Shown one piece after another: positions 1 to 19,683 of a stretch of DNA of 32,000 bases (position 1 is its first letter; the number at the start of each line of letters is the position of its first letter). Source of the DNA: Candidatus Methylomirabilis limnetica (GTDB lineage: Bacteria > Methylomirabilota > Methylomirabilia > Methylomirabilales > Methylomirabilaceae); the NCBI RefSeq assembly GCF_003044035.1, contig NZ_NVQC01000022.1:342092-374091 (forward strand), in the 5' to 3' direction. Both the position numbers and the translations under genes were made by a program. The notes below the pieces were generated by a model. It searched no databases and was not told the origin of the DNA. It was given only the letters and a program-made list of their open reading frames with translations.

Positions 1-1488
1 ATCAAGCGGCAGGGTCTTCAGGCGAAGCGCCGTGGTGAGGGCCTGCTCCGCTCCGTCCCAATTCCCCTGCTCAAGCAGCATCACACCCAGGTTATTCCAG
101 GTCGCCGCATCGTCCGGCATAATCCGGAGAGCCTCCCGAAACTCCCGGGCGGCCTCTTGGCGACGTCCTCGGATCATATACAGCCGGCCCAGGTTTCGGC
201 GCGCCCTCGCCGATGCCGGGGCGGTCTGGACCGTCTTGGTCCAGAGTGTCAGGTCATCCTTCCAATCGCGGGTCCGAATGACCGTCCTGAATCCGAGCAG
301 AAGCACCACAAGCGCGAAGACGGCCAAGACAACCCGGCGCTGTCGGACACGCTCAAGCAGCCCTTCCACCAGCATGGCGGCTGCAAGACACAAGCCGATC
401 GACGGCAAGTACAGATAGTGCTCGGCTACGATCTCATGATGGGGGATGATCTGGGCGACGGGCAGCAGTGTCATAAAGACCCAGAGGCCCCCGAATGCCG
501 CCCACCGGTGGGAAGCCAGGAGCTGCCAGATCGCCCACCAGCTCCCGCCCACCACTGCGATTGCCATCAGGACCCGGCCATCCAAGAGGGTACCCGGCAC
601 CGGAAAGGCGTTGAAGGAGTAATCCGCGTTCAGGGTAACGGGCCAGAGCAGCAGTGTCAGGTAGTGACCCATGATCGTGACGCTGGTGAGCACTGTCGGC
701 CAGAGTCCGCCGCCCCACAGGTCAAACCGTTGTGTGACGCGGAAGAGCACCACGAAGTAGTAGGCCACCGCGGAAAAGATCGCCCCGATCACCAGATAGA
801 GGCACCTGTGCTCCCGCCAGAGCCGCCGTCCCGCCTCCCTGAGGGCCATCCAGGAACTCCATCCTCCCTCTCCGCCCTCGGGCATGGAGCGGACCAGATC
901 ATACCCGAGACAGAGCAACGGGAGGGTGATCGCCATCTCCTTCGAGAGGAGGCCGAGACAGTACGAGATCCCGGTCAGGCACAGGAACCGCACCTTGCCG
1001 GTCGCCCGGTATCGGACGAATCCATAGAACCCCATCAGATAGAACAGGGTGAACAGGACATCCCGCCGGCCGGATATGTAGGCGACGGCCTCGGTCTGGA
1101 CTGGGTGGACGATAAAGAGCAGCGTCGCCAGGAAGGCGGGCCGGGTGATCCCCAGGATGGTCCGCAGCACGGTGAAAACCAGGACCCCGTTCAGGGCATG
1201 GTAGAGGATGTTGAACGCCCGGAAACCCGACGGGTTGAGCCCGAACAGGGCATAGTCGATCGCGTACGAGGCGGTGCGAAGCGGGCGATACGAAAGCCAT
1301 CCGCCGGACCTGAATAACTGCGTGAGCCCCTCGATCGAGCGAAACCGGAGATCGGTCGCGACCAGTGGATGGTCGTCGAAGACAAAGCCGTTGAAAAGTG
1401 AACCGGCGTACAGGAGTCCGGCCACCCCCACGATTACCAGACAAACCGCCACCGGGCGGGACCAGAATGAAAGCGGGCGATCAGGCAC
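1..1488 (-). CDS. TPR-containing GT-C type membrane glycosyltransferase (PMT/TMTC-like, DUF1736-type); 3' end lies outside the window
   Basis: Absent from the ORF track because it runs off the left edge. My minus-strand translation from GTG 1488 gives LVIVGVAGLLYAGSLFNGFVFDDHPLVATDL..., then about 10 hydrophobic helices. The tail is TPR-like: ...NLGRLYMIRGRRQEAAREFREALRIMPDDAATWNNLGVMLLEQGNWDGAEQAL. The frame stays open to base 1. The in-frame ATG at 1542 lies within or upstream of the preceding terminator, so GTG 1488 is preferred. Confidence 0.75.
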   Translation of the reverse strand, partial: MPDRPLSFWSRPVAVCLVIVGVAGLLYAGSLFNGFVFDDHPLVATDLRFRSIEGLTQLFRSGGWLSYRPLRTASYAIDYALFGLNPSGFRAFNILYHALNGVLVFTVLRTILGITRPAFLATLLFIVHPVQTEAVAYISGRRDVLFTLFYLMGFYGFVRYRATGKVRFLCLTGISYCLGLLSKEMAITLPLLCLGYDLVRSMPEGGEGGWSSWMALREAGRRLWREHRCLYLVIGAIFSAVAYYFVVLFRVTQRFDLWGGGLWPTVLTSVTIMGHYLTLLLWPVTLNADYSFNAFPVPGTLLDGRVLMAIAVVGGSWWAIWQLLASHRWAAFGGLWVFMTLLPVAQIIPHHEIVAEHYLYLPSIGLCLAAAMLVEGLLERVRQRRVVLAVFALVVLLLGFRTVIRTRDWKDDLTLWTKTVQTAPASARARRNLGRLYMIRGRRQEAAREFREALRIMPDDAATWNNLGVMLLEQGNWDGAEQALTTALRLKTLPLD

Positions 1489-1495
1489 AGGCGCT

Positions 1496-1530
1496 AAAAA
1501 AAGACCCCCCTGGCCGGACGACCAGGGGGG
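1496..1530 (-). terminator. Rho-independent terminator after the collagen-like gene
   Basis: Perfect 9-bp GC stem CCCCCCTGG/CCAGGGGGG (1505-1513 / 1522-1530) with an 8-nt loop. On the minus strand it is followed by TC plus T7 (1496-1502). It lies 19 nt past the stop at 1549. Confidence 0.85.
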
Positions 1531-1548
1531 TGGAGTGTACATAGACGG

Positions 1549-2625
1549 CTAGGGCACCGTAGTCAGCAGGGACCAGGATCCTGGCGACACGGCCGGCGTT
1601 GTGCCAAGGGCCGTGTGTTCCACCGCTATCAAATCGGCTGCGGCAAACGTCACGTTGCTTGAGACGAGGCAGTTATCGACAGTATCAGAAATCGTACAGG
1701 TCAGCGTGGTAGCAGCCCCACCATTCCGGACAGTGAACTTACGACTCTGACTAGCACCAGGGCCAACTTTTAGCTTCACCCGCATGACGCTGACGGTGCT
1801 CGCAGGTACAGGGACCGAGACGTCAGTCGATGCCACAGTACTATTGCCATTACCTGGACCCATCCAGCGAAGAGCGGTACCAAGGTCGGCTCCACCTGAC
1901 CCGCCGGTCAGGAGACTCCTGACATTCGGTCCTGCTGGGCCAGTTGCACCTGTGGCGCCCGTGGCACCAGTTGCACCCGTGGCGCCTGTGGCGCCTGTTG
2001 AGCCTGTGGCACCTGTGCCACCTGCGGCACCTGTGGCGCCCGTGGCACCAGTTGCACCCGTGGCGCCTGTTGAGCCTGTTGAGCCTGTTGAGCCTGTGGC
2101 ACCTGTTGAGCCTGTCGGTCCGGCTGGTCCTGTTGGTCCTGTTGCGCCAGTTGGTCCTGTCGGTCCGGCTGGTCCGGCTGGTCCGGCGGCGTCAAGGTTC
2201 TCACTCGCCGCTACCCCTGCCATGACAAGACTGCCGCTGAAGGCCCCCACAAAGGGGAAGAGACGCGCCGGGCTGCCCTGTAGCGCCACCTGCCCCTGGA
2301 TGTTGATCCCCTCTACGGTGCTGGTCGTCAGGTGCCCGGTGCTGTCTACTGAGTAGCTACCGGTGATGTTAAAAGGCGTCGTCGCCCCCCCAACCTCTTT
2401 CATGGACCCTACTATCGCCACCGTACCCGGATTGGCGCAGGGACTTCCGGGAGTAAAAGTCAACGTCCCGAGAGCCTGGGTAGGGATTCCGGGCTCCACC
2501 ATGGTGCTGAAGGAATAGATCCCCGAGAGACTGCAGGAATCGGCTGTCCAGCCGGGTGTAGGCAGGATCAGCACGGCCGCGGTGAGCAGGCCGGCTAGGA
2601 CCGTACTCTTGGTTCGTGTACGCAT
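1549..2625 (-). CDS. Secreted collagen-like (Gly-X-Thr triple-helix repeat) protein
   Basis: The ORF track gives 1549..2718. I prefer the internal ATG at 2625, which has an AAAGGGGG SD just upstream and yields the signal peptide [28 protein letters not shown]. There are about 28 uninterrupted G-X-Y triplets ([16 protein letters not shown]...[11 protein letters not shown]) flanked by non-repetitive domains. Confidence 0.85.
1927..2184 (-). repeat. Coding tandem repeat (9-nt periodic GXT/GXA collagen triplets)
   Basis: Residues 179-264 of the 389-aa ORF. Mostly GAT/GST/GPT/GPA triplets, with nucleotide-level reiteration of gtggc(a/g)cc(t/c)gt units. Confidence 0.85.
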
Positions 2626-3314: not shown

Positions 3315-4277
3315 ATGAACTATCCGCCGCATCTGTCCGTCATCATCCCCCTCTTGAACGAGGCCGACGGTCTGCCGGAACTCTACCGGGAGCTCCAGGA
3401 GGCCCTCCGCCCATGGGCCAATCGCCATGAGCTGATCTTTGTGGATGACGGCAGCACGGACGGCTCATTTGCCGCGCTCGAAAAGCTCCACGCAGAAGAC
3501 CCACGGGTGGTCGTCCTTCGCTTTCGCCGGAATCAGGGAAAGGCGAGCGCGTTGATGGCGGGGTTTCGCCGGGCGAGAGGAGAAATCCTGGTTACGCTCG
3601 ACGCCGACCTGCAGGATGATCCGCGGGAAATCCCGCGATTTCTCGACAAGCTGGACGAGGGGTTCGATCTGGTGTCGGGATGGAAAGTCAAACGCCAGGA
3701 CCCCATCATCAGGCGGGTGCTCTCGCGGGTCTTCAACAGCGTCACGTCGCTGTTCACGGGACTCACGCTCCACGATTTTAATTGCGGCTTCAAATGCTAT
3801 CGGAGGGGTGTGATCCAGGAGATCAGGCTCCACGGGGAGCTGCACCGGTTCATTCCGGCGTTGGCGAGTTGGCGGGGTTTCAGGATAGCGGAGATCGAGG
3901 TCGCACACCGGCCGCGGAAATACGGCCAGTCAAAATACGGCTCCGAACGGATCCCTCGCGGCTTCTTCGACCTGCTGACCGTCTTGATTCTGACCCGCTA
4001 CCATCTGAGGCCACTTCACCTTTTCGGGGCCTTAGGAGCCCTGCTCAGTCTGGCAGGTTCCATCGGTCTAGCGTATCTGGTTTTCGGCTGGTTCTTCGGA
4101 CAATGGATCGGTGACCGCCCCCTCCTCAGCCTCAGCATTCTGACGATGATCATCGGCCTACAGTTCATCTTTTTCGGACTCCTGGCCGAGATCATCGTCT
4201 ACTCCAGCAGGCAAACCGACATCCCCCCGCTTGCCGCTGTCCTCGACCAGGACGACTCTCGCAAGGACATCGATTAA
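3315..4277 (+). CDS. GT2 polyprenyl-phosphate glycosyltransferase (ArnC/GtrB/Dpm1-like) with C-terminal 2-TM anchor
   Basis: MNYPPHLSVIIPLLNEADGL..., FVDDGSTDGS, the DADLQDDP motif, and two C-terminal hydrophobic helices (LFGALGALLSLAGSIGLAYLVF, LLSLSILTMIIGLQFIFFGLLAEIIVY). The ORF-track start at 3135 only translates the upstream palindromic repeat. ATG 3315 is preferred; 3270 is possible. Confidence 0.85.
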   Translation: MNYPPHLSVIIPLLNEADGLPELYRELQEALRPWANRHELIFVDDGSTDGSFAALEKLHAEDPRVVVLRFRRNQGKASALMAGFRRARGEILVTLDADLQDDPREIPRFLDKLDEGFDLVSGWKVKRQDPIIRRVLSRVFNSVTSLFTGLTLHDFNCGFKCYRRGVIQEIRLHGELHRFIPALASWRGFRIAEIEVAHRPRKYGQSKYGSERIPRGFFDLLTVLILTRYHLRPLHLFGALGALLSLAGSIGLAYLVFGWFFGQWIGDRPLLSLSILTMIIGLQFIFFGLLAEIIVYSSRQTDIPPLAAVLDQDDSRKDID

Positions 4278-4359: not shown

Positions 4360-5034
4360 TCACGGTGCGCGATGCGTCTTGCGCCTCCCGCTCGTTTTTC
4401 CTCTCCATCCGGGAGTGCTCCCCTCGTCAGCGGCACGCACCTCCTCTGGAATTCCACCGAAAAACCAATACAGGGCCATCCAGATCAACACCGGTAAAAG
4501 CTGACTCGCCATCGACAGGTAGAAGTTCGTCCCCCAGACAGAGAGGCGACCGGCAACGCTCTGAAAGGCTTCAAGTTCAGGCTGCTGAAAGAATTTCATG
4601 CCGATCACAAGGTACAGTATGTGTGTCAAAAACAGAACACCCAACGCGATCGTCAGACTTACACACCGGCGCCTCCAAGCAACGTGCCGCTGGGCCAATA
4701 CAAGGCCAGTCATGAGAACGAGATTGAAGTGAGTCAAATAGCCTGTGAATCCCTGGATCTTCATCCCTTCCGTAAAAGGGCGATCCGAGCGCATAATTAA
4801 AATATTGCCCTTCCAACCCACGAGGCTATGAACACGAGGGGCCTCTGTGACGGCAAGCAGGACATTGGCGCCGGAGGCGAGAAGGCGGTTGTAGCCGGGG
4901 GTGATGACGAACCACAGGGGGAGGATGAGGCAGAAGACCAGGAGAAACCGGCCGGCAAACGCCAGCAGCGCTTTAGTGTCGGGGAGCACCGACAAACCGC
5001 TCCGTCCAGTAGATCCAGGCCAGAAGGGCGGCAA
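4360..5034 (-). CDS. Polytopic membrane protein co-transcribed with the exosortase (exosortase-associated partner)
   Basis: 224-aa ORF with 5-6 hydrophobic helices. From ATG 5034 it overlaps the exosortase stop by 62 nt. In-frame TTG 4995 or GTG 4989 would shorten the overlap to 17-23 nt. No recognisable soluble domain. Confidence 0.6.
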   Translation of the reverse strand: MPPFWPGSTGRSGLSVLPDTKALLAFAGRFLLVFCLILPLWFVITPGYNRLLASGANVLLAVTEAPRVHSLVGWKGNILIMRSDRPFTEGMKIQGFTGYLTHFNLVLMTGLVLAQRHVAWRRRCVSLTIALGVLFLTHILYLVIGMKFFQQPELEAFQSVAGRLSVWGTNFYLSMASQLLPVLIWMALYWFFGGIPEEVRAADEGSTPGWRGKTSGRRKTHRAP

Positions 5035-5485
5035 AGATGATCAACGATTGCCAAATCAGTAGATGGGCAGTCTCGAAGAATGACGGAAAATAGCGGCCGA
5101 TATACATGAGACTGACCACTCTAATGAGGTTTAAAGAGAGGATCACTGATGCCCCCAGCAGAACCCCCTTGAGTTTCTCTGTCGCCCGACTTGGATAGGC
5201 CAGGACTGCTGACACGTAGATCGCCACGACAAAGATGCCGGTGCACACATCGTCGATCCGAGCCGCAAACCCCTCAACCTGGAGGATAGTTCCCGAAGTC
5301 GTGGCCTTGAGGGACAGGAGGTTCAGGACGAACCCGCTGACTGCGGCAAACGCCAGCGCCAGCGGCTGCCCGACAAGCTCCCGCATGATGCTTGTTCGTA
5401 GGAGCGTGTAAAACACGATGATGCACACCAGGAAGGTGATACATGCCCTGACCACTGGCTTATTTAGACTAAGTCGTTGCTCCAT
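4973..5485 (-). CDS. xrtH: Small exosortase/archaeosortase-family transpeptidase (XrtH-like)
   Basis: 170 aa, all-helical membrane protein. It has the ordered Cys/Arg/His signature of the family: IDDVCTGIF, LNLIRVVSL, ETAHLLIWQ. A protein with an IPTL-CTERM-like tail is encoded at 15847-16746. Confidence 0.7.
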   Translation of the reverse strand: MEQRLSLNKPVVRACITFLVCIIVFYTLLRTSIMRELVGQPLALAFAAVSGFVLNLLSLKATTSGTILQVEGFAARIDDVCTGIFVVAIYVSAVLAYPSRATEKLKGVLLGASVILSLNLIRVVSLMYIGRYFPSFFETAHLLIWQSLIIFAALLAWIYWTERFVGAPRH

Positions 5486-5785: not shown

Positions 5786-6292
5786 TCACGGGATGGTTAC
5801 CCGGTACACGGTCAAGCTGATTTGTGCAATACTGCCTGCAACACCAGCGAAGGTCCCATCGCCACCAAGAATAATGCCGCGCGCCGTATTCGGAGAGTCA
5901 GCAAAGTTCCGGACTATCTTGTAATAGACATTCCCTCCCGGCAGGACCGCAGCCCCATCGGTGTAGTTGAATGTTCCGGCGGACCCATTATAGCGCGGGA
6001 TGGTCTCAAAATAACTCCCAAACGTTGCTGTGCCGTCAGCAGATTTAATCAAGCCTCCTGAATACGCCACATCGAACCCTGCAGCGGACGGATTCAGGCC
6101 GCTAATGGCGCCATCGCTCTGCACGAATTGCACATCAACAATAGTGGCAGCCTTGACGAGACTGGGCAGCAAGATCAGAACAAAGGCAAGCGCCACACAG
6201 CCTCCCCATGATCGCCCCGATCCTCGCCTATGGCGAGTCGTGCTGAGACTCACATGATGCCAGGACAAAATAGCCTCGATGGTTCTTCGCAT
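5786..6292 (-). CDS. Small secreted protein of unknown function
   Basis: 168-aa ORF. A strong SD (AAAAAGGGGGGGGAGGCC) sits directly upstream of ATG 6292. Hydrophobic signal-like segment CVALAFVLILLPSLVKA|ATIVD. No recognisable domain. Confidence 0.6.
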   Translation of the reverse strand: MRRTIEAILSWHHVSLSTTRHRRGSGRSWGGCVALAFVLILLPSLVKAATIVDVQFVQSDGAISGLNPSAAGFDVAYSGGLIKSADGTATFGSYFETIPRYNGSAGTFNYTDGAAVLPGGNVYYKIVRNFADSPNTARGIILGGDGTFAGVAGSIAQISLTVYRVTIP

Positions 6293-6645: not shown

Positions 6646-7404
6646 TCACCGTAGGGGTGTTGCGCGTTGCGGGGGTTCGGTGGCGAGCCTTTGTCGGATA
6701 CGCCAAAGGTCCACCAACATCTGCACGGGGTGACGCAGCAGGCTCACCTGACTGCTCGGATCATTGATCCAGCGCACCGGCATCTCACATACGGCATATC
6801 CCAACTGCATCGCGATAAGGATAGCCTCGACGTCGAAGGCAAAGCCGTCGATACGCGCGTATTGGAAGACCGCGTGCGCCGCCTCGCGCCGAAACAGCTT
6901 GAAACCGCACTGCGTATCCCGAAAAGGGATCGAGAGGTAGACCCGCAGGAGGCGATTGAACAGCTTCCCCATCAATTCCCGCAGGCGAGTCTGACGCACC
7001 AGTATCTGCGATCCTACCAGCGCGCGTGAACCGATCACAAGATCGCTACCCTCCGAAAGGAGCTTCAAGGCTCCATCTACCTCCTCAATGGGTGTGGAGA
7101 GATCCGCATCCGAGAACAGCACGACCGCTCCCGTGGCCGCCATCATACCGGCCCGAATGGCGGCGCCCTTGCCCCGGTTCTGTGAGAAGCGAATCAGCCT
7201 CAACTCCGGCGCGCGCGCCATGAATTGTTCCACGACGGCGACCGTGCTATCGCGCGATCCGTCATCCACTACAATCATCTCGAACCCGCCCGCCCCGTAT
7301 CGGGACCGCAAATAGCCCCACACCCGCTGGAGCGATGGGCCGATCCGACTCGCCTCATTGTACGTGGGAATCACTACGCTTAATTGAATCGCCTCTTGCC
7401 CCAT
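6646..7404 (-). CDS. GT2 glycosyltransferase (dolichyl/polyprenyl-phosphate beta-glucosyltransferase-like)
   Basis: LSVVIPTYNEASRI, VVDDGSRDST, NRGKGAAIRAG, SDADLSTPIEE. No TM segment. Confidence 0.85.
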   Translation of the reverse strand: MGQEAIQLSVVIPTYNEASRIGPSLQRVWGYLRSRYGAGGFEMIVVDDGSRDSTVAVVEQFMARAPELRLIRFSQNRGKGAAIRAGMMAATGAVVLFSDADLSTPIEEVDGALKLLSEGSDLVIGSRALVGSQILVRQTRLRELMGKLFNRLLRVYLSIPFRDTQCGFKLFRREAAHAVFQYARIDGFAFDVEAILIAMQLGYAVCEMPVRWINDPSSQVSLLRHPVQMLVDLWRIRQRLATEPPQRATPLR

Positions 7405-12297: not shown

Positions 12298-13593
12298 GGC
12301 AGTGTAAATAAATAAAGGTATCAACTTCGCTCTGTAGCTTTTGGTCTTATGACGTAGTTCCAGTCGCCATGAAACTTATTACGTTCCACATTGATGCGCT
12401 TCATCTCTTCATCGCTAACCTTGCGTCCGGTTGGATATTTCCGGCGATCCAATCTACACGTCACTTTCAGCCCCTTCGCCGTGGTCGTCCTGGCGATGAG
12501 ATTGACGATCGTTTCGTAATCCCGCAACGGTTCACCACGCCAATTTGACGTGATAAAGGAAAACAGCCGGTGTTCGATCTTGTTCCATTTGCTGGTGCCG
12601 GGAGGAAAATGACAGACGGAAAGGCACATGCCGGTTTGATCAGCAAACTTCTGCAACTCCAACTTCCAAAGCCGCAACCGCGACCCATTGCTCCCCCCGC
12701 CGTCGGCAGTGATCAGAAGCGTTGCCGTATCCGGATACAGCCGTCGTCCTTCAAAATGCCACCACCCGCGAATCGAGGCCACGGCAAATTCTCCAGTGTC
12801 ATGGTCGGTCCCCACATTGACAAAACCGGCGTTGCGTCCGAGGTCGTAAATACCATACGGATAGGCGCGTGGCACTTCTGGGCTGGGGAAGTCGTGACCT
12901 TGAACTTTTTTGGGCTGCTTTGCCGGAAGCCATTGCTGACCGGCATTGTTGTAGTTGCCGATGAGTTCCTTCTTTTTTGTGTCCACCGAAATCACAGGAA
13001 TGCCTTGCGCCAGGCGTCTCTTTACCGCAGCATTGATGTGCCGAAATTGCGCATCGCGGTCGGGGTGGTCTGTGCCCTCCTCGGTCTTCCGATTGCTCTG
13101 CAGACTATAGTTCAGATCGTGAAGAATCTGCGCGACCTTTGCATGGCTGACCGGGTGCTTGTTCCTGCCAAGCTGCCTGGCAATCGCCCGCGTGCTTTTA
13201 CAAATCCATCGCAGGGGGGACTGTGGATCGCCTCGCGTTTGGCCATCAATCATCTCTTCCAATGCATCCAACAGACGTGGGTCGGAAACGGTGATGGACT
13301 TGCGCCCTGCTCCGGGACAACGGATGCGACCTTCCGATGGCACTATCCCTTCTTGAATTTCGCGGACTCCTTTGGCGATGGCCCGTCGCGACAATCCACA
13401 CGCGCGATGCACCACAGAGATTCCACCAAAGCCCAAACTCACGGCTTCATTAGCAGCCATGATGCGGCGCGTGCGCTCGTCCAAAAGCGGCCACACAGAA
13501 CGAAACTTCCGTCTCAACTCGGGCAGGGTGTTCATGCTCAAGAAGCATACCACCACAACTCATAGATTGATACCTTTATTTATTTACACTGCC
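12298..13593 (-). mobile_element. Intact ISAzo13-family insertion sequence (1296 bp)
   Basis: Perfect 27-bp terminal inverted repeats GGCAGTGTAAATAAATAAAGGTATCAA (12298-12324) and the reverse complement (13567-13593). Flanked by the direct repeat TTA (12295-12297 and 13594-13596). Single full-length transposase ORF. Confidence 0.9.
12321..13556 (-). CDS. ISAzo13-family DDE transposase
   Basis: Characteristic blocks: DPQSPLRW, HPDRDAQFRHIN, PVISVDTKKKELIGNY, PYGIYD, ITADGGGSNGSRLRLWK, HFPPGTSKWNKIEHRLFS, NWRGEPL. The likely true start is ATG 13535 (MNTLPELRRKF). The stop codon lies inside the left IR. Confidence 0.9.
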   Translation of the reverse strand: MVVCFLSMNTLPELRRKFRSVWPLLDERTRRIMAANEAVSLGFGGISVVHRACGLSRRAIAKGVREIQEGIVPSEGRIRCPGAGRKSITVSDPRLLDALEEMIDGQTRGDPQSPLRWICKSTRAIARQLGRNKHPVSHAKVAQILHDLNYSLQSNRKTEEGTDHPDRDAQFRHINAAVKRRLAQGIPVISVDTKKKELIGNYNNAGQQWLPAKQPKKVQGHDFPSPEVPRAYPYGIYDLGRNAGFVNVGTDHDTGEFAVASIRGWWHFEGRRLYPDTATLLITADGGGSNGSRLRLWKLELQKFADQTGMCLSVCHFPPGTSKWNKIEHRLFSFITSNWRGEPLRDYETIVNLIARTTTAKGLKVTCRLDRRKYPTGRKVSDEEMKRINVERNKFHGDWNYVIRPKATERS

Positions 13594-15768
13594 TTAGGAG
13601 GGATTTTCTAAGGAACTGTATCTTTTCCTCGAAAGAAATACAAGCGTTTCAGCGAGGAGCAACGCGATTCCGGCCGCTGTGGCAACCCGTCCAACATAAT
13701 CAGGCCAGCGATTGCCGAAGACGAGCCGGACCTGCTTGGCCGTGGGATAGACCAGCATGAATGATGGTGACACCAGATAGATCCGATCGGCGCCCTCAAC
13801 GCGCCATTTCGGGTGATACGAGACCTTGATCAGGTGCGGGCGACCAGGGCACTCGGTCTCAAACCGAACCTCCTCATTGCCCAAGGCGTCTTTCACGTGG
13901 CATTCGGGCGAAAGGACCTGTTTAACGGGCTCCTCCATTAAGTCACGAAACGGCACGACTCCCGGCGGTACCGGATCGCCGGGTCGTGGGAAAAGGAGCG
14001 GTACCTCCAGCCATTCCGGTTTTTGGAACCAGTCATAAGCGAGTCGTTTCCAGTCGCCATCGGTCACGAGGGCAGGCTGGTATCGAAGCGGTACAACATA
14101 CTGGCCGTTGCCTTGACGGACCTGGAAGATCTTGTAGGGTCCGATTTCCCCCTCCTCGCGGTACCCAGGATTCGACCCCAGGGCAGCCTTCACCCTATCC
14201 GTGACGGCAATCACCTCTTTGACGTTGAACAGCTCCAAATGGGCGAGTGCCCGCTCCGGGTCGAATGGCGAACATTTGTAGGGAACGAAGGGACAAGAAG
14301 GAGTGTCCGTTAGTTCAGACTGGATGTAGAACACGAACGGGGAGGTCGGAGAGGACTGCATGTAGGCCCCTTCGAGCGTTGGGCGGCCCGATATAAGGGG
14401 GAGAGCCTCAAAAGCCCTGATCGTACCGGCCTTATCATGGAGAACCGAATGTTGGTACACGACTCTGGGACTGTGGGGGCCGCCTGGTAGCGCAATAGAA
14501 TTCACGACAATAAAGTATCGCCACCACGGTGTCTGCTCCATTCCGGAAAAATTCCACTGGATCCATTTGGGGATAAACGACACCTGAGGCATGACCCAGG
14601 CGATAGTCATCACGGCGATGACGACAGGCGCCGCTCGCCAGAGTGAACGCGGTAGCCGCATCAGAAGTCCACCGAGACCGGCTGCGGCCAAGAGGACGAG
14701 AAAAAACTGCGCAAAGGCCAGGAACCTGACATCTACAAGGTTCAGCCAGGGTGAAACAAAATACAGGGTGACCGATAGCACCACAGGGTAGGTCAGGTAG
14801 TAGATCATCCGAAGCCATCCCTTGTCGCTAAATTTCCCCCGCAGTGTCAAGGCTACTGTGACCGCCGCAATGACGATGATGGGCCATAGCACGACCGGAA
14901 CGATCTCCAGGATAGATGTAAACTCCCAGGTAATGGAGAACCCGGTAGTGTAAGGAAGGTACCAGACGAGCGGAATCAACCAGAATCCCAGCAGCAGCCC
15001 GCCCACAGCATACACCCGCACCAGGTACAGGAGCGTCATCCGGAACTCCGAGGTCACAGCAAGGAAGTACAGCCCCATACCCGCCGCCATCACCATCCCG
15101 TATCCGTGCGCTAATCCGGTAAGGGCGAAGAGTACGGCACACCAGCCTGCGTACCGCCGCTCAAGGACGCCTCGGTACAGTGCACCCATGAATAATACGA
15201 GGAGCGTAAGTGAGAGGCTGTGAGAAAACTCGCCGGCCAGCGTGCTCGGAATGTTTCCACCCCACATGCTGTTGCCTGCGTTCAGCAGGAATGGAAGGGT
15301 CAGAACGGCGCCAAGCGCAGGAATGGGGAACGGACATCCGATCCAGCGGAGCGCAACGAGGGAGGCGATCGGGAGCCCGAAGGTTCCGGCGATAGTCCCC
15401 AGCTTAAATGCAATAGGGAATGAGACGACAAGACTGAACCCGGCGATCAGCAGGAAGGCAAGGGGAAAATAGAAAAGGAAGAGGGGATAGCCGGCGAGGT
15501 TGCCCGGCATCCAGCCAATAAGCTTTCCATTAGGCAAGAGGTAATCCCGCAGATATCTTGCCGCGACATAGTGTGCGATGGTGTCGCCACCGCCAGTGAT
15601 AGTCGGCTTGAAAAGGAGGGAGGGTTTAAGGTACCAGAGAAGGAGTCCGTAGGTCAGCAGGAGGGCCAAGAGCGTGCTCACTCTCTCAACCCATCCGGGA
15701 TATCTTCCCGTTGGAACTGCGTCGGGTTCGGCGGAGGCTGTACGTACAGATTCGCGAACGTCCAGCAT
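13594..15768 (-). CDS. Very large polytopic membrane protein (candidate GT-C-like enzyme; resembles the PTPS-related/COG5617-type membrane family) with a ~300-aa C-terminal extracytoplasmic domain
   Basis: The ORF track starts at TTG 15786, which lies inside the upstream terminator. ATG 15768 is preceded by GGAGCGGTC. N-terminal motif GGDTIAHYVAARYLRDYLLPNGKLIGWMPGNLAGYPLFLFYFPLAF, then about 13 helices, a soluble domain and a final TM. The stop TAA coincides with the TTA duplicated by the IS. Confidence 0.7.
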   Translation of the reverse strand: MLDVRESVRTASAEPDAVPTGRYPGWVERVSTLLALLLTYGLLLWYLKPSLLFKPTITGGGDTIAHYVAARYLRDYLLPNGKLIGWMPGNLAGYPLFLFYFPLAFLLIAGFSLVVSFPIAFKLGTIAGTFGLPIASLVALRWIGCPFPIPALGAVLTLPFLLNAGNSMWGGNIPSTLAGEFSHSLSLTLLVLFMGALYRGVLERRYAGWCAVLFALTGLAHGYGMVMAAGMGLYFLAVTSEFRMTLLYLVRVYAVGGLLLGFWLIPLVWYLPYTTGFSITWEFTSILEIVPVVLWPIIVIAAVTVALTLRGKFSDKGWLRMIYYLTYPVVLSVTLYFVSPWLNLVDVRFLAFAQFFLVLLAAAGLGGLLMRLPRSLWRAAPVVIAVMTIAWVMPQVSFIPKWIQWNFSGMEQTPWWRYFIVVNSIALPGGPHSPRVVYQHSVLHDKAGTIRAFEALPLISGRPTLEGAYMQSSPTSPFVFYIQSELTDTPSCPFVPYKCSPFDPERALAHLELFNVKEVIAVTDRVKAALGSNPGYREEGEIGPYKIFQVRQGNGQYVVPLRYQPALVTDGDWKRLAYDWFQKPEWLEVPLLFPRPGDPVPPGVVPFRDLMEEPVKQVLSPECHVKDALGNEEVRFETECPGRPHLIKVSYHPKWRVEGADRIYLVSPSFMLVYPTAKQVRLVFGNRWPDYVGRVATAAGIALLLAETLVFLSRKRYSSLENPS

Positions 15769-15777: not shown

Positions 15778-15812
15778 AAAAAGCAAGAACGGGGCTTAAC
15801 GCCCCGTTCTTG
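15778..15812 (-). terminator. Rho-independent terminator after the IPTL-CTERM cargo gene
   Basis: 12-bp stem CAAGAACGGGGC/GCCCCGTTCTTG (15801-15812 / 15784-15795) with a 5-nt loop. On the minus strand it is followed by C plus T5 (15778-15782). Confidence 0.7.
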
Positions 15813-15846
15813 CGATTATCACGTAACCTGCGTATTCAGTTGTCGA

Positions 15847-16746
15847 TTACTGCAGGTGATTTCTTCGAGCTCTCACCATCCAAGCCATCGCACCCAGGAA
15901 CGCCGCTCCCAACACCATCATTCCCCAGTTACCGACCGTCGGGACCACCGGAATCGTCGTCGTGGTGGTCGTCGTGGTCGTCGTGGTCGTCGTGGTGGTG
16001 GTTACCGTAACGCTGGTGGTATCAGAATCGCCTGTGGCGTTATCAACAAGGCTGCCAGCTGCGACGTCGAAGCCCGCGCCGCCGCCGGATACGTTCAGCG
16101 TCCCTGCGGTGTTCGGGGTGATGAACGAATTCCCATTATAGACAAAGAGGATGCCCTGGTTCAGACTCAAGCTGATCCCGTCGACAGGCTGTGCGGCAGC
16201 ATCAGCAATCGAACACGTGGCGGTTCCCCCAAACCCATACACGCTGTCGCCACAATTCACGTTGTTCGTGATGCTGGCGACAGGGGCGAGCGCGCTGATC
16301 AGTGTCAGGCCGGCATCACCGAATCCAGCCACCGTGGTGGCGCCAGAGGCCCATGACCCGGCACCAGTGGCAGAGAAGGTCACGGCGGGCGTGCAGGCGG
16401 CCAGCGACAGGGTCCCGGTCCGCTTCCCCTGAGCCAGAGCGGTAAGAGGGGTCGCCGGTACCTTGGCAATCAGGGTAGTCCCGCTGCTGACGGTTTGAAC
16501 CACCGTCGCCGCAGAATTGAAGGCGATAGACATTGAGACGTTGGTCAGACGGTCATGATCGGTCCCAGCCGGCTGTGCATCCGAACAGAGGTACTGATAG
16601 ACGGTTCCATCGCTGGCAATGTCGATGCGCTGCTGCACCCGTGCATCGACACTCATCGGGGCGATAACCGTTCCCGCAAGGATCGCGGGGGCCAGCAGAG
16701 ACAGAGCCAACTTCTTGCTGAAAGCAACTCTTGCTCTAGAACTCAT
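15847..16746 (-). CDS. Secreted protein with Thr16 linker and IPTL-CTERM-like exosortase sorting signal
   Basis: AAGGAGGAG SD upstream of ATG 16746. Signal peptide MSSRARVAFSKKLALSLLAPAILAGTVIAPMSVDA. C-terminus ...TVTTTTTTTTTTTTTTTTIPVVPTVGNWGMMVLGAAFLGAMAWMVRARRNHLQ, i.e. motif, TM helix and basic cluster. Confidence 0.8.
   Translation of the reverse strand: MSSRARVAFSKKLALSLLAPAILAGTVIAPMSVDARVQQRIDIASDGTVYQYLCSDAQPAGTDHDRLTNVSMSIAFNSAATVVQTVSSGTTLIAKVPATPLTALAQGKRTGTLSLAACTPAVTFSATGAGSWASGATTVAGFGDAGLTLISALAPVASITNNVNCGDSVYGFGGTATCSIADAAAQPVDGISLSLNQGILFVYNGNSFITPNTAGTLNVSGGGAGFDVAAGSLVDNATGDSDTTSVTVTTTTTTTTTTTTTTTTIPVVPTVGNWGMMVLGAAFLGAMAWMVRARRNHLQ
15955..16002 (-). repeat. Homopolymeric Thr tract (16 consecutive ACG/ACC codons)
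   Basis: The plus strand reads cgtcgtcgtggtggtcgtcgtggtcgtcgtggtcgtcgtggtggtggt. In frame, immediately before the IPVVPTVGNWG sorting motif. Confidence 0.9.
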
Positions 16747-17030
16747 CCTTGCTCCTCCTTGCCCCCAACCTACAGGGCATAGCCTTCAACGTTGAGTACC
16801 ACTAAGACCACGAACCTAACATATAATCGAATGCATCATCAAGCGGCGCAGAAGCTGTACCGAAATTCTCCGATCTCTCGCCTCCCTTCGCCCCCAACAC
16901 ATGGAGTACTATTGCCGTGCAACGCAAGTAGATCAATCCTGGAGCCTAAACCCGCTGCCTTGATACCATGCCTCCTTTTCGCCTGTCAAGTTTTTTATTT
17001 CTCTGCGAAAGCTCTGGTATTCTGTCAGGG

Positions 17031-17197
17031 ATGAACTACCCCGCAGCAAGCTGCGAGGTATCGTCTTATGTTCTGGCCCGTCATTCCGTGCTTGACACGC
17101 CTGCCCCGTACTTGATACGGGGGAATCCAGTCGGGCCCTCTGGATACCGGCTTCCGCCGGTATGACGAACTCGCGGCAAGCCGCGGGGTATCAACCC
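17031..17197. mobile_element. MITE-like repeat (…ACCCCGCAGCAAGCTGCGAGG… family)
   Basis: Imperfect terminal inverted repeats (gaactaccccgcagc / gccgcggggtatcaa). An inverted, slightly longer copy lies at 24871-25067, with about 85% identity over the shared parts. Confidence 0.55.
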
Positions 17198-17370
17198 TCA
17201 ACGAAAATGAATAGCCAAGCCGACCGAGAAGCCTGCCGATACGGAGGGGATCCGAGTCTCACGGGAAACCGTGCGCCGACTCCTCCGGGCCGAGAGGCTC
17301 GCGTCCCCGAACACGCCCCGCGCGCCCTGACATTTTCATGGATAGACTTCGTAATCGCTCGATTCCTCCC

Positions 17371-17447
17371 GTCATTGCGAGTACCCGTAGGGTGCGTGGC
17401 AATCTCAGCACAGGAATGCGAGATTGCTTCACTTCGTTCGCAATGAC
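17371..17447. repeat. Palindromic REP-like element, same family as 3079-3221
   Basis: GTCATTGCGAgtacccgtagggtGCGTGGCAATCtc...GAGATTGCttcacttcgtTCGCAATGAC. Confidence 0.6.
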
Positions 17448-17595
17448 AGCTTTCTATCGCTGTGCTGGGATCTGTCGTTGCCCTTGACCGGGACGCAACG
17501 GCATTTCTATGGTATTATTCCTCCGGCGGCACACAGCTCCGTGAACCGGTTGAACACGTAAGGTTGGCTGGAATGGTGGAGGCGTTGTCGAGATA

Positions 17596-18501
17596 ATGAT
17601 GCGTCGCGGTGCCATTATCGTCATCCTCTTGGGTGCGATCATCGCCTTTGCGTTCTCGCGGGCGGTCGACGCGGCCACTAATGCTGAGCTTGTTCCAGGA
17701 TCGAGGATCGTCTTCCCCTACTATGACCTGCGACCTGGATTCGCGACCTTCCTGTTCCTGACCAACATCAGCTCAGCCCCCGTATCTGTGGCCTTGGAGC
17801 TTTACGATACGTCGGGCGCCCGCCAGGGCACCAACATAGACCTTTCAGCGCGCGACATCGATTCGCTCGACCTGTCCGAGATGATCTCCGGTAACGCATC
17901 CGATGGCTTTTTGCAGGGCTTCGTCGATGTCACCACGAGCGCGGACGTCCTGATAGGCACAGCGGTTGTCGTCAATATGGATGACGACTGGGCGATCACG
18001 TATAATGGGGCGTCGGCTCGCCGGCAAACGGCCGGCACGACACCCTTCGAACCGTACCCGACAGGTCTCTTGTTACCCGCGTTCCTGACCCCTGGACAAC
18101 TTGGCGGTGGTACGCTGGCCGATGGCCTGCTGATCGTCGCCGCACCCCACCCAACCCGTCCCGGCGGCAAGCTACCGGATAAACCTATTCGGGCTTCGGC
18201 CGAGATCTTTCTGCGGCAGGAGCTCACCGCCGTGAGCAGCGACCAGCAAAGCACTCACGAGATAATCCAAAGCTCTTCCAGATTCAGCGGACGCCACATC
18301 ATCCTGCCGATAGGGACAGTTGTCGGCACCTTCCCCTCTCCGACGTTGGGATGGCTGTCTCTTAGGAATCATGTGGTGGACAAAAATGGCATCCCTTTCG
18401 GGCTGGTTGGTCTGTACATTCAGACATTGATCGGGCCGAGTAGCGCCTCCGGGATGGCCATTCGGCTCTCCGGTGATCCGTCCGCTGACACAACTCAATA
18501 G
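17596..18501 (+). CDS. Secreted protein of unknown function
   Basis: 301-aa ORF with signal peptide MMRRGAIIVILLGAIIAFAFSRAVDA|ATNAE. No recognisable domain. Confidence 0.65.
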   Translation: MMRRGAIIVILLGAIIAFAFSRAVDAATNAELVPGSRIVFPYYDLRPGFATFLFLTNISSAPVSVALELYDTSGARQGTNIDLSARDIDSLDLSEMISGNASDGFLQGFVDVTTSADVLIGTAVVVNMDDDWAITYNGASARRQTAGTTPFEPYPTGLLLPAFLTPGQLGGGTLADGLLIVAAPHPTRPGGKLPDKPIRASAEIFLRQELTAVSSDQQSTHEIIQSSSRFSGRHIILPIGTVVGTFPSPTLGWLSLRNHVVDKNGIPFGLVGLYIQTLIGPSSASGMAIRLSGDPSADTTQ

Positions 18502-18555
18502 CAGCGTGCGCAACGATACGCCTAATCCCATACACCCCTGCGGCGTCAGGTCTCT

Positions 18556-19683
18556 ATGAAGATCTGCCTCGTCGGCCCCTTCCCCCCTTTACGAGGGGGG
18601 ATCGCCCATTATAACGCCCAGCTCGGGCTGGAGCTGATGACGCGTCACGAGATCGCGGTGATCTCCTTTTCGCGCCAGTATCCGGCCATACTGTTTCCTG
18701 GGCGAACGCAGTTCGACACGGGCTCCCCGCCTGTGGGGCTCACTAGTGAAGCGATCCTCGACTCAATTAATCCTCTGAGCTGGCTCCGTACCGGCCGCCG
18801 GATCGCTGAGATCGCTCCCGACTTGGTTATTGTTCACTGGTGGCACCCTTTCTTCGGCCTGTGCCTCGGGACGACAGTGAGCCTGGCCAGAAGGCGATCT
18901 CGCGCCAGCGTCATCTTCATCTGCCACAATGTTGTTCCGCACGAACCGTTTCCCTTGGCGAGCGGACTGACAAGGTTCGCGCTGGCCTCAGGCGATGCGT
19001 GGCTCGTCCACTCCGAGACCGACCGACAAGATCTGGAGTCGCTCAATCTGCGAGGCCACACACTTCTGGTCCCTCAACCTCCGGGGCAAGGGTTCGGAGC
19101 ACCGATCGACAAAGAGGAGGCGAAGAGTCGTCTCGGCCTTTCCGGAAATACCCTTCTCTTCTTCGGCCTGATCCGTAGCTACAAGGGGCTTCCAGGATTG
19201 CTCGAGGCGATGCCCCTCGTGCTCCAAAAGGTGAACTGTACCCTCCTCGTGGTCGGAGAGTTCTACGAGGGGAAGGACCGCTGCCTGAGCCTCATCAGCG
19301 ACTTGGGCCTCGCGTCGCACGTCCGGGTCATCGATCGCTTCGTTCCGGACAACGAGGTCAGCCTCTACTTTTCCGCAGCCGACCTGGTCGTGCTCCCCTA
19401 CGAATCGGCCACACAGAGCGCCATCGTCCCGATCGCCTTTGCCTTCGAGCGGCCCGTGGTGGCCACTCGCGTGGGCGGGCTGCCGGAGGCGGTCCGTGAC
19501 GGCGAAACCGGCCTTCTGGTAGAGCCGCGCAACCCAACCGCGTTGGCGGAGGCGATCATCCGCTTCTACGAGGAAGACATGGGGGGCATATTTCGCCGGC
19601 ATATCCTGAAGCAGCAGCGCTTTTCCTGGGGCGAACTGGCCGCCACGCTGGAGACTGCGGCGATCAGCCGTACTTCGCAGTGA
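18556..19683 (+). CDS. GT4 (group 1) glycosyltransferase
   Basis: MKICLVGPFPPLRGGIAHYN at the N-terminus. C-terminal GT-B block PYESATQSAIVPIAFAFERPVVATRVGGLPEAVRDGETGLLVEP. Confidence 0.85.
   Translation: MKICLVGPFPPLRGGIAHYNAQLGLELMTRHEIAVISFSRQYPAILFPGRTQFDTGSPPVGLTSEAILDSINPLSWLRTGRRIAEIAPDLVIVHWWHPFFGLCLGTTVSLARRRSRASVIFICHNVVPHEPFPLASGLTRFALASGDAWLVHSETDRQDLESLNLRGHTLLVPQPPGQGFGAPIDKEEAKSRLGLSGNTLLFFGLIRSYKGLPGLLEAMPLVLQKVNCTLLVVGEFYEGKDRCLSLISDLGLASHVRVIDRFVPDNEVSLYFSAADLVVLPYESATQSAIVPIAFAFERPVVATRVGGLPEAVRDGETGLLVEPRNPTALAEAIIRFYEEDMGGIFRRHILKQQRFSWGELAATLETAAISRTSQ

Follow-up and report, generated by a model that had tools for sequence, protein, structure and literature searches.

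The 32,000-nt window analysed here, from Candidatus Methylomirabilis limnetica (NC10 phylum), is on balance probably an S-layer protein maturation locus, which sorts the protein and glycosylates its stalk. In our best reading, the poly-Thr stalk would be glycosylated on the periplasmic side of the membrane from lipid-linked donors, and perhaps a GXT collagen-like repeat as well. The gene identities, the GT-C fold predicted for a PTPS_related protein, the S-layer orthology, the conserved gene order and a conserved gene trio are what the analysis establishes. Family matches were significant for every gene that the original prediction had listed, at or near the positions it gave. The features are as follows (coordinates, strand, description):

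1–1488, minus: TMTC-like GT-C enzyme (PMT_2 membrane domain and TPR), N-terminal 496 aa, with the C-terminus beyond the window
1504–1531, minus: terminator-like hairpin between the collagen-like and PMT_2-TPR genes (12-bp stem, 9 GC pairs, then a T-run)
1549–2625, minus: secreted collagen-like protein with GXT repeat, candidate substrate (Collagen PF01391, 5e-12)
3315–4277, plus: GT2#1, ArnC/GtrB-type polyprenyl-phosphate glycosyltransferase with two-TM tail (Glycos_transf_2, 3.6e-34; DADLQDD motif)
4360–4989, minus: 209-aa membrane protein without known family, just downstream of the XrtH gene and overlapping its end
4973–5485, minus: exosortase H (XrtH; TIGR04177, TIGR04178, Exosortase_EpsH)
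5786–6196, minus: small secreted protein (ORF with signal-like N-terminus; a 136-aa gene in locus L001)
6646–7404, minus: GT2#2, soluble DPM1/PgfS-like GT2 (Glycos_transf_2 family, 5e-32; structure matches)
7355–9970, minus: 871-aa protein with about 12–13 TM helices, an alpha/beta domain and a tandem PA14 pair (PA14, 1e-22)
10074–10823, minus: GT2#3, GT2 partner in the trio (Glycos_transf_2 family, 3.2e-21; structure matches)
10833–12191, minus: B12-binding radical SAM enzyme, third member of the trio (Radical_SAM, 6e-25; weak B12-binding match; CHYRCSFC motif)
12297–13594, minus: ISAzo13-family IS between the PTPS_related and radical SAM genes (DDE_Tnp_ISAZ013, 1.5e-136)
13594–15768, minus: PTPS_related GT-C glycosyltransferase (PF10131, 121.7 bits; predicted fold)
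15783–15813, minus: strong terminator-like hairpin between the S-layer and PTPS_related genes (13-bp stem, 9 GC pairs, then TTTTT)
15847–16746, minus: S-layer protein ortholog with signal peptide, S-layer domain, Thr16 stalk and IPTL-CTERM tail (TIGR04174; alignment)
17596–18501, plus: secreted 301-aa protein (ORF with signal peptide; weak DUF5719 match only)
18556–19683, plus: cytoplasmic GT4 glycosyltransferase (Glyco_trans_1_4, 1.5e-28)

S-layer protein and exosortase H

The IPTL-tailed protein scores 25.5 bits against TIGR04174 (cut-off 20.5) and aligns over its full length with a 316-aa protein of M. lanthanidiphila (locus L013; 39% identity); identity is 41% to a protein of M. oxyfera and 64% to that of locus L010. 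The 316-aa protein was identified as mela_00855, which it matches in length, in the position of its tail and in its GT4 and dehydrogenase neighbours, and mela_00855 is the immunogold-verified S-layer protein of M. lanthanidiphila. As judged from the alignments, the Thr16 protein is thus the ortholog of a proven S-layer protein (PMC8671808). All four species aligned share the poly-Thr tract and the IPTL-CTERM tail. At each of the Methylomirabilis loci examined (the window, L010, L013, L014 and L015–L017), the gene immediately upstream of PTPS_related encodes the S-layer protein. A 375-aa GT4 gene likewise stands beside the S-layer gene in M. lanthanidiphila.

XrtH is well matched to TIGR04177 (91.5 bits, cut-off 86), TIGR04178 (54.6 bits, cut-off 23) and Exosortase_EpsH (2.4e-9), and is the sortase expected to process the IPTL-CTERM tail. 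Its gene is about 10 kb from the S-layer gene, and it adjoins the cluster in some Methylomirabilis genomes only, which counts against a maturation locus. The 209-aa membrane protein beside it has no match in Pfam or NCBIfam, nor has the small secreted protein at 5786–6196; at locus L015 the gene for this membrane protein again adjoins that for XrtH.

The original prediction had pointed to secreted neighbours with Thr-rich tracts, and both the GXT collagen repeat and the Thr16 run are indeed there. It had recognised neither the S-layer protein nor XrtH, and the ISAzo13-family IS is likewise an addition. Tracts of this kind are glycosylated by pairs of GT2 and GT-C enzymes in streptococci (PMC12041528).

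[quoted passage not shown] This negative is not decisive, because the stalk was not covered and a 1-nt frameshift splits the PTPS_related gene in the assembly of that species. It is the only available experiment.

The PTPS_related, GT2#3 and radical SAM trio

The model of the PTPS_related protein (pLDDT 85.7) points to a GT-C enzyme: its best 14 Foldseek matches in the PDB are all GT-C enzymes with probability 1.0, and the predicted fold matches STT3, PglB, ArnT, AftA and Pmt4. The acidic residue predicted in the first outer loop is D62 of a GGDT motif after TM1, conserved in at least 90% of sequences. GT2#3 best matches the structures of ArnC and GtrB (3.5e-7), and the radical SAM enzyme is closest among NCBIfam models to HpnJ and BchE, both under cut-off. 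Homologs of GT2#3 (150–230 bits) adjoin PTPS_related genes in many phyla, and homologs of the radical SAM enzyme (340–470 bits) are found beside PTPS_related genes as well.

A survey of 45 PTPS_related loci with complete flanks, both bacterial and archaeal (DPANN and Altiarchaeota), found a GT2 gene within 400 bp in 29 and a B12 radical SAM homolog within 3.5 kb in 21, one or the other being present at 39. The conserved unit is the trio of PTPS_related protein, GT2#3 and B12 radical SAM enzyme, which recurs in many bacterial and archaeal genomes. The original prediction of three GT2s paired with three giant membrane proteins gives way to this trio. About 60% of PTPS_related ORFs are longer than 830 aa, and TPR domains, which the protein O-mannosyltransferases TMTC1-4 also have, occur in many of the longer homologs. 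ORFs with poly-Thr lie within 1 kb of PTPS_related genes more often than expected (10 observed against 3.9 expected, p = 0.003; without Methylomirabilis, 7 against 3.4, p = 0.04), although the sample is small and the density per Mb in a crude control was similar.

In the window the trio is interrupted by the ISAzo13-family IS, which has perfect 28-bp inverted repeats at its ends (12297–12324 and 13567–13594) and is absent from the relatives at L010 and L013. Its position between the PTPS_related and downstream genes could disturb expression of the latter.

Other glycosyltransferases and the 871-aa protein

All three GT2s have their best matches among polyprenyl-phosphate sugar synthases (ArnC, GtrB, DPMS) rather than polysaccharide synthases, in line with the original prediction. 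GT2#1, with two C-terminal TM helices, matches ArnC structures at 4e-56 (residues 6–294), GtrB at 1e-32 and NF007986 at 1.3e-60, the last still under the equivalog cut-off. GT2#2 best matches DPMS (5mlz, 4.7e-16), followed by ArnC and GtrB; PgfS is its top NCBIfam match and the second best of GT2#1. The cytoplasmic GT4 and the B12 radical SAM enzyme predicted at the outset were both found by family match.

Three giant membrane proteins had been proposed as GT-C enzymes, and for two of them this is borne out by their families, in the PTPS_related case also by the predicted fold, and by the acidic first-loop residue. The 1–1488 product is a GT-C enzyme with an acidic residue conserved in its first outer loop, the FDD motif just after TM1. 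It matches PMT_2 (33.7 bits, cut-off 26.1), TMTC_DUF1736 weakly and several TPR families, and its homologs carry PF02366, PF08409 and PF13231; the full-length gene encodes 672 aa in locus L001. The collagen-like gene upstream contains tandem repeats of 9, 27 and 81 nt, and a collagen-like gene likewise precedes the PMT-TPR gene in M. oxyfera (L014).

The third giant, the 871-aa protein (model pLDDT 91.4), is 100% identical to a protein named from M. limnetica. It belongs to a small family of 253 representatives without annotation, and for it a GT-C assignment was not supported. It is a candidate GT-C-like enzyme or glycan-binding protein. It may quite possibly, if somewhat short of probably, be a glycan-binding anchor, sensor or S-layer assembly factor instead of a glycosyltransferase, leaving two GT-C enzymes at the locus. 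As a whole it matches no Pfam or NCBIfam family and no GT-C family significantly, and there is no GT-C structure among the 50 Foldseek PDB matches listed (down to E = 1.2e-3), against 12 below 1e-3 for the PTPS_related model; PA14 matches may, however, have crowded GT-C matches off this list. Its PA14 pair resembles that of RsgI3, a polysaccharide-sensing anti-sigma factor. Against a purely binding role stands a helix layout compatible with GT-C (TM1, a long first loop with two short helices, about 12–13 TM helices), as does a large C-terminal domain that its PA14 domains place outside. Position 51, after TM1, is acidic in 67 of 67 sequences, an Arg-Arg pair does not vary, and in M. lanthanidiphila a PMT_2 GT-C enzyme fills the same operon position. 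The first 50 nt of GT2#2 are shared with the end of the 871-aa gene. GT2 neighbours of the 871-aa family are confined to the Methylomirabilis clade; distant members lack them, and some of these lie in sugar loci or next to PMT_2 genes.

Proposed pathway, alternatives and known systems

We infer which sugars are donated and to what acceptor, what the radical SAM enzyme does and in which order the steps occur, as follows. The S-layer protein would be exported with its C-terminal IPTL-CTERM helix as a temporary inner-membrane anchor, so that the poly-Thr stalk next to this helix would stay at the surface of the membrane, level with the GT-C active sites. On the cytoplasmic side, the ArnC/GtrB/DPM1-like GT2s would charge polyprenyl phosphate with single sugars, and the B12 radical SAM enzyme would probably modify the lipid-linked sugar from GT2#3, C-methylation and rearrangement being two examples. 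After flipping, the PTPS_related enzyme would move the sugar onto Thr residues of the stalk; the TMTC-like PMT_2-TPR enzyme would likewise glycosylate the GXT collagen-like protein encoded just upstream. The 871-aa PA14 protein and GT2#2 may add or bind a further sugar. Finally, exosortase H would cut off the IPTL-CTERM helix and pass the S-layer protein on to surface display.

It is possible, and we think unlikely, that the GT2 and GT-C enzymes decorate a non-protein target, such as lipid A or LPS core (ArnC/ArnT-like), O-antigen (GtrB/GtrC-like), another envelope glycan or a membrane lipid, adjacency to the S-layer gene then reflecting a shared cell-envelope island. ArnC is closest to GT2#1, the PTPS_related model reaches its highest target-normalised TM-scores with ArnT (0.50) and AftA (0.47), and the best match of the radical SAM enzyme is HpnJ, whose substrate is a hopanoid-linked sugar. 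To our knowledge, no PF10131 protein has a demonstrated acceptor. [quoted passage not shown] What argues for a protein acceptor is that the S-layer gene immediately precedes the PTPS_related gene in all Methylomirabilis loci examined, that poly-Thr ORFs cluster beside PTPS_related genes, and that protein-binding TPR domains occur in many PTPS_related homologs and in the PMT_2 enzyme of this locus. The trio moreover occurs not only in several bacterial phyla but also in DPANN and Altiarchaeota archaea, which have no LPS, peptidoglycan or hopanoids.

A conventional exosortase-linked exopolysaccharide locus, in which the glycosyltransferases would make a polysaccharide for secretion and the secreted proteins would belong to its matrix, is very improbable. 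An exosortase-family gene does lie amid glycosyltransferase genes, there are weak matches to the glycosyltransferases stp2/stp3 of the XrtA system and to EpsD/EpsE, and the PA14 domains suggest glycan binding. Yet no Wzx flippase, Wzy polymerase, Wza/Wzc export protein or priming phosphoglycosyl transferase was matched in the ORFs scanned (1–20.3 kb), the GT2s are like single-sugar polyprenyl-phosphate synthases rather than polymerising ones, and the sortase is XrtH, with its cognate tail on the S-layer protein itself.

Stalk glycosylation of a sorted S-layer protein, the reading we prefer, can be set beside several known systems. One is the locus mela_00851 to mela_00857 of M. lanthanidiphila, with orthologous GT4, S-layer protein, PTPS_related, radical SAM and GT2 genes; it differs in the frameshifted PTPS_related gene of the assembly and in a PMT_2 protein that replaces the 871-aa PA14 protein. 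The combination had been thought undescribed, but Gambelli et al. (2021; PMC8671808) had already noted glycosyltransferase genes around this S-layer gene, though without identifying XrtH, the GT-C enzymes or the radical SAM partner.

ArnC aligns with GT2#1 over its full length, including the two-TM tail, and the PTPS_related model counts ArnT among its best structural matches. However, GT2#1 scores 205 bits against an ArnC equivalog cut-off of 529, the window has no other arn gene, and the GT-C enzymes here carry TPR or large periplasmic domains atypical of ArnT. In eukaryotic and actinobacterial O-mannosylation, DPM1 or Ppm1, a GT2 polyprenyl-phosphate-mannose synthase, works with PMT or TMTC, GT-C enzymes with a conserved acidic motif in the first outer loop, and TMTC enzymes carry TPR domains (PMC7801869). 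The 1–1488 product shares this build (PMT_2, weak DUF1736, TPR, FDD motif), whereas its candidate substrate is a bacterial GXT collagen-like protein.

Haloarchaeal S-layer glycoproteins (PGF-CTERM, ArtA) similarly combine Ser/Thr-rich O-glycosylated clusters with a sorting helix that is cut off by an enzyme of the exosortase/archaeosortase family (PMC6098224), in another domain of life, with a PGF instead of an IPTL motif and with O-glycosylation that is known there and proposed here. Since the enzymes of archaeal O-glycosylation were not identified as of 2018 (PMC6098224), the comparison cannot be carried to the enzyme level.

In streptococci, GtrB with PgtC2 and PgfS with PgfM1 glycosylate poly-Ser/Thr tracts outside the membrane (PMC12041528). 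There a GtrB/PgfS-type GT2 makes the polyprenyl-phosphate sugar, as predicted here, and a GT-C enzyme then attaches it, on the outer side of the membrane, to poly-Ser/Thr in proteins that are membrane-tethered or at the surface, as proposed here; in the pgf cluster, substrate and enzyme genes are also neighbours. In streptococci the GT-C enzymes are of YfhO type, in contrast to the PTPS_related and TMTC-like PMT_2-TPR enzymes of this diderm NC10 host, whose module includes a B12 radical SAM enzyme and whose main candidate substrate is an exosortase-sorted S-layer protein rather than a sortase A substrate.

Gene content and soluble enzymes

The genes on which the original prediction was built are all present in the window, every entry with a family match, and an exosortase gene and an insertion sequence (IS) that it had not mentioned lie among them.

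Genes and elements of the locus (window coordinates, strand where assigned, product and best support)
1-1488 (-), PMT_2 and TPR protein, cut by the window edge; PMT_2 33.7 bits (cut-off 26.1), FDD motif after TM1
1549-2625 (-), GXT collagen-like protein; Collagen 5e-12
3315-4277 (+), GT2#1; Glycos_transf_2 3.6e-34, two C-terminal TM helices
4973-5485, exosortase H (XrtH), 170 aa; TIGR04177 91.5 bits (cut-off 86)
6646-7404 (-), GT2#2; Glycos_transf_2 5e-32
7355-9970 (-), 871-aa protein with two PA14 domains; PA14 1e-22
10074-10823 (-), GT2#3; Glycos_transf_2 3.2e-21
10833-12191 (-), B12 radical SAM enzyme; Radical_SAM 6e-25
12297-13594, ISAzo13-family IS; perfect 28-bp inverted repeats
13594-15768 (-), PTPS_related protein; PF10131 121.7 bits (cut-off 26.4)
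15847-16746 (-), IPTL-tailed protein with a Thr16 run; TIGR04174 25.5 bits (cut-off 20.5)
18556-19683 (+), GT4; Glyco_trans_1_4 1.5e-28

It had been proposed that three GT2 enzymes are paired with three GT-C membrane proteins which O-glycosylate locally encoded Thr-rich secreted proteins. This interpretation is supported in part: the type of the GT2s and the GT-C nature of the PTPS_related protein were borne out, whereas the three-to-three pairing was not. Compared with solved structures, GT2#1, together with its two-TM tail, matches ArnC (4e-56) and GtrB (1e-32) from end to end, GT2#2 resembles a Pyrococcus dolichol-phosphate mannose synthase (DPMS; 4.7e-16), and GT2#3 matches ArnC and GtrB more weakly than the other two match their counterparts (about 4e-7). 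With ArnC, GtrB and DPMS as the best structure matches, the enzymes are of the polyprenyl-phosphate type as predicted, not polysaccharide synthases. None of the three reaches an NCBIfam equivalog cut-off, and judged from these comparisons they are polyprenyl-phosphate glycosyltransferases yet not the named enzymes. Direct assignment of GT2#1 to the ArnC/ArnT system was dropped because its score is far too low for the equivalog and the remaining arn genes are missing. The radical SAM enzyme scores 168 bits against the HpnJ equivalog (cut-off 577.6), and its sequence places it in the B12 radical SAM family but not as HpnJ. A role in hopanoid modification was rejected, since the trio of PTPS_related, GT2#3 and B12 radical SAM genes also occurs in archaea.

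The ISAzo13-family element adjoins the PTPS_related stop codon, with the radical SAM gene on its other side. It is not present in the related loci of Methylomirabilis lanthanidiphila (L013) and another relative (L010), so the insertion looks recent, and it could lower the expression of downstream genes. Strong terminator-like hairpins stand in the window between each candidate substrate gene and the following GT-C gene.

Several features lie to the right of this gene set. Two c-di-GMP-I-GGC riboswitch aptamers above the Rfam gathering threshold, at 21601-21681 (+; 69.8 bits) and 28970-29050 (+; 62.6 bits), are located within near-identical duplicated leaders. The former precedes a lipoprotein with an HExxH motif, whose true start is likely near 21742, and the latter a secreted CARDB, fibronectin-like, beta-helix protein with a choice-of-anchor Q domain, which likely starts near 29111; the long ORFs from 21538 and 28907 therefore probably start too early. 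Paralogous small lipoproteins at 19894-20343 (+) and about 21742-22239 (+) each carry a HELAH (HExxH-type) motif, which suggests zinc metalloproteases; neither has a Pfam or NCBIfam match. At 27046-27137 a 35-nt unit with many C and G runs (consensus CCTCCCCCCATCGCGGGGGAGGGAGTGTAAGCTCT) is repeated 2.6 times in tandem, and close to the window's right edge an ORF at 31220-31963 (-) matches UPF0236 (PF06782) and, less strongly, an ISL3 transposase. Type II toxin-antitoxin genes are clustered in 20376-28668.

Toxin-antitoxin genes
20376-20786 and 23980-24399, PIN toxins
22915-23217, 24396-24668 and 27959-28297, Phd/YefM antitoxins
25686-26144, PemK/MazF toxin

The three large membrane proteins

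The PTPS_related protein is the clearest GT-C member. Its predicted structure (pLDDT 85.7) was compared with the PDB by Foldseek, and the best 14 matches are all GT-C proteins (STT3, AftA, PglB, ArnT, AglB and Pmt4), with a probability of 1.0 and TM-scores of 0.32-0.50. An acidic residue, D62 in a GGDT motif, follows TM1 (helix 25-47) in the first loop and is shared by at least 90% of 35 homologs, and HHpred ties PF10131 to TMTC, PMT and STT3 (PMC7801869). Together with the PF10131 score, these properties confirm the proposed GT-C assignment. In the M. lanthanidiphila assembly (CABIKM010000014.1; L013 about 11640-11700), a 1-base deletion splits the gene into ORFs of 566 and 206 aa, the latter aligning at 77% identity with the window protein's residues 516-718; this frameshift may be a genuine inactivation, leaving a pseudogene, or a sequencing or assembly error.

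The product of 1-1488, predicted to be PMT/TMTC-like, proved to be so. It passes the PMT_2 cut-off, matches TPR families strongly and carries the acidic motif FVFDDHPL directly after TM1, in the first loop; DUF1736 stays at 23.3 bits in this truncated copy, below the cut-off of 27. Homologs carry PF08409 and PF02366, and the bacterial family includes members with PMT, PMT_2, TMTC_DUF1736 and TPR domains, the same domain build as that of the TMTC O-mannosyltransferases (PMC7801869).

The 871-aa protein matches one from Candidatus Methylomirabilis limnetica with 100% identity. It is a candidate GT-C-like enzyme, the proposal having partial support: an acidic first-loop residue and an outside C-terminal domain were found, but membership of a GT-C sequence family was not. 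The protein has no Pfam or NCBIfam family, and the closest approach to a GT-C sequence family is a sub-threshold DUF6056 match (20.2 vs 27 bits), which recurs weakly in 5 of 71 family members; 10 distant members have no relevant Pfam match. The full-length model (pLDDT 91.4) gave no GT-C protein among the 50 Foldseek PDB matches listed (to E = 1.2e-3), all of which cover the beta-rich C-terminal part and are PA14, further carbohydrate-binding or beta-sandwich proteins. Matches in a viral structure library were likewise confined to this region and mainly to PA14, and the family profile found nothing but PA14 proteins among PDB sequences. An exhaustive profile search of 1.84 billion representative proteins recovered a small family of 253 and reached no annotated family. 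Comparison by hhalign with the PTPS_related or PMT_2 profiles gave no match, but this negative carries no weight because PMT_2 and PTPS_related, a GT-C pair serving as positive control, were not matched to each other either (P = 0.11).

Other properties count in favour of a GT-C-like enzyme. All 67 sequences have D or E at position 51, directly after TM1, and the family has an invariant Arg-Arg pair. In the model, TM1 is followed by a long first loop with two short helices, about 12-13 TM helices by our own judgement of the helix pattern, and a large C-terminal outside domain. In M. lanthanidiphila, the operon slot of the 871-aa gene is taken by a PMT_2 protein. A side observation concerns the locus L011, where the PA14 membrane protein has an 850-aa homolog: some 4 kb downstream, a gene at 16671-19913 encodes a 1081-aa protein with a 13-Thr run, and glycosyltransferase genes are absent nearby.

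Gene neighbourhoods across genomes

Eighty genomic loci with PTPS_related orthologs were fetched from Desulfobacterales, Acidobacteriota, Planctomycetota including Brocadiaceae, Gammaproteobacteria, and archaea including Aenigmatarchaeota and Altiarchaeota, and their ORFs were searched using the window proteins. Neighbours were counted in the 45 loci having at least 3.5 kb on each side of the PTPS_related gene.

Neighbours of PTPS_related genes (45 loci)
GT2 homolog within 400 bp, 29/45 (mostly GT2#3-type, 150-230 bits)
GT2 homolog within 3.5 kb, 34/45
B12 radical SAM homolog within 3.5 kb, 21/45 (340-470 bits)
GT2 or B12 radical SAM homolog nearby, 39/45

These counts define PTPS_related, GT2#3 and the B12 radical SAM enzyme as the conserved unit in place of the three pairs originally proposed. 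GT2#3-type genes adjoin PTPS_related genes in many phyla, whereas the pair of GT2#2 and the 871-aa gene is restricted to the Methylomirabilis-like clade; distant members of the 871-aa family lie in mixed contexts, and GT2 pairing was therefore rejected as a property of that family. The adjacency of a GT2 gene in 29 of the 45 loci indirectly supports the use of a polyprenyl-phosphate-linked sugar donor by the PTPS_related enzyme. The conserved B12 radical SAM partner suggests that the lipid-linked sugar is altered; such modification is not known for pathways combining GT2 and GT-C enzymes.

In Methylomirabilis, the S-layer gene is directly upstream of PTPS_related in all loci examined, and the collagen-like gene precedes the PMT-TPR gene in M. 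limnetica and M. oxyfera. In two MAGs, L008 and L012, large sugar loci contain an 871-aa-family homolog together with an overlapping pair of a GT2 gene and a PTPS_related-TPR gene, and both include genes for a sugar epimerase, oxidoreductases, a sulfotransferase and a split transketolase; L012 has in addition another PTPS_related gene as well as one for a PMT_2 protein, and L008 has aminotransferase, acetyltransferase and methyltransferase genes. In three anammox loci (L048, L058 and L064; Brocadiaceae/Jettenia), a B12 radical SAM homolog follows the PTPS_related gene by 40-290 bp. The S-layer O-glycan of Kuenenia is reported to have a methylated reducing-end HexNAc (PMC5088730), and a link between the two is a matter of speculation.

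The S-layer protein as candidate acceptor

Which protein would receive the sugar? Gambelli et al. 2021 (PMC8671808) showed that mela_00855 forms the S-layer of M. lanthanidiphila; this protein of 316 aa begins with a signal peptide and ends in an IPTL-CTERM domain. L013 encodes a 316-aa protein flanked on one side by genes for a 375-aa GT4 and a UDP-sugar dehydrogenase and on the other by PTPS_related, radical SAM and 249-aa GT2 genes, a layout that fits the published account of mela_00856, mela_00857 and mela_00851 (PMC8671808). The IPTL-tailed protein of the window is 39% identical to it over the full length with the same domain order; for the counterparts in M. oxyfera and another relative the identity is 41% and 64%, respectively. 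GT4, PTPS_related, radical SAM and GT2 neighbours are common to the window and L013. In all four aligned orthologs, a poly-Thr tract, hereafter the stalk, is immediately N-terminal to the IPTL-CTERM helix. Thus, from its full-length alignment and the shared layout of poly-Thr and IPTL-CTERM, the 15847-16746 product is assigned as an ortholog of the verified S-layer protein mela_00855. It bears the sole TIGR04174 tail within the window, and the 4973-5485 product passes the curated exosortase H cut-off; according to a 2018 review, exosortases had seen no experimental analysis (PMC6098224).

Periplasmic glycosylation from lipid-linked donors is the best-supported reading of the locus. The GT2 enzymes would put single sugars on polyprenyl phosphate, and the radical SAM enzyme would probably change the GT2#3 product. 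The GT-C enzymes would attach these sugars to Thr in the S-layer stalk and may modify the GXT repeat as well, and XrtH would afterwards cut off the IPTL-CTERM helix. Lying beside a membrane helix, the stalk would be kept at the membrane surface, where the GT-C active sites are situated.

A conventional exopolysaccharide locus, Wzy-dependent or exosortase-linked, is unlikely, as none of the ORFs scanned in 1-20.3 kb matches a priming phosphoglycosyl transferase, flippase, polymerase or export protein. A non-protein acceptor, such as lipid A or other glycans or lipids, is possible, and against it speak the archaeal distribution of the trio and its TPR fusions: about 60% of PTPS_related ORFs are more than 830 aa long, and TPR domains occur in many homologs of greater length. 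The published proteomic study of the M. lanthanidiphila S-layer reported no glycans (PMC8671808), a result that is limited by the split PTPS_related gene in that assembly and by its coverage, the uncovered part of the protein being the stalk and sorting helix.

Returning to glycosylation of the stalk, poly-Thr ORFs are present in 22 of the 80 PTPS_related loci; 10 lie within 1 kb of PTPS_related, where flank lengths would predict 3.9 (p = 0.003), and without the three Methylomirabilis loci there are 7 against a predicted 3.4 (p = 0.04). Overall enrichment was not seen, poly-Ser/Thr ORFs having a density of 24/Mb near PTPS_related and 17/Mb at a small set of other loci, and with so crude a density control the clustering stays a suggestive hint of the acceptor. 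Since the S-layer gene is directly upstream of PTPS_related and the stalk went unobserved in the sole proteomic study, the stalk is a specific acceptor to consider.

The most interesting part of the locus is thus the trio beside the S-layer gene, with its putative function. It is conceivable, if on balance doubtful, that the trio constitutes a widespread uncharacterised system of protein O-glycosylation in bacteria and archaea, in which a radical-SAM-modified (for example C-methylated) sugar is carried on polyprenyl phosphate to Thr-rich surface or S-layer stalks. In the literature searched, PF10131 is named, by accession or by either form of its Pfam name, in just two papers, one of which (PMC7801869) lists it as a TMTC relative. 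The enzymes of archaeal O-glycosylation had not been identified as of 2018 (PMC6098224); if the proposal is true, the trio would be a candidate for those missing from archaeal S-layer O-glycosylation and might explain methylated reducing-end sugars such as that of the Kuenenia S-layer protein. Confirmation would provide a candidate system for glycosylating Ser/Thr clusters in S-layer proteins, help the annotation of many bacterial and archaeal genomes, and give insight into the building of the rigid S-layer sheets that shape Methylomirabilis cells.

The combination had not been recognised as a described system, but its kind is known. In streptococci, GtrB with PgtC2 and PgfS with PgfM1 glycosylate poly-Ser/Thr tracts (PMC12041528), and in haloarchaea the S-layer glycoproteins have both O-glycosylated Ser/Thr clusters and a tail that is processed by an archaeosortase (PMC6098224). 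What is distinctive here is the trio of PTPS_related, GT2 and radical SAM enzymes, so far uncharacterised.
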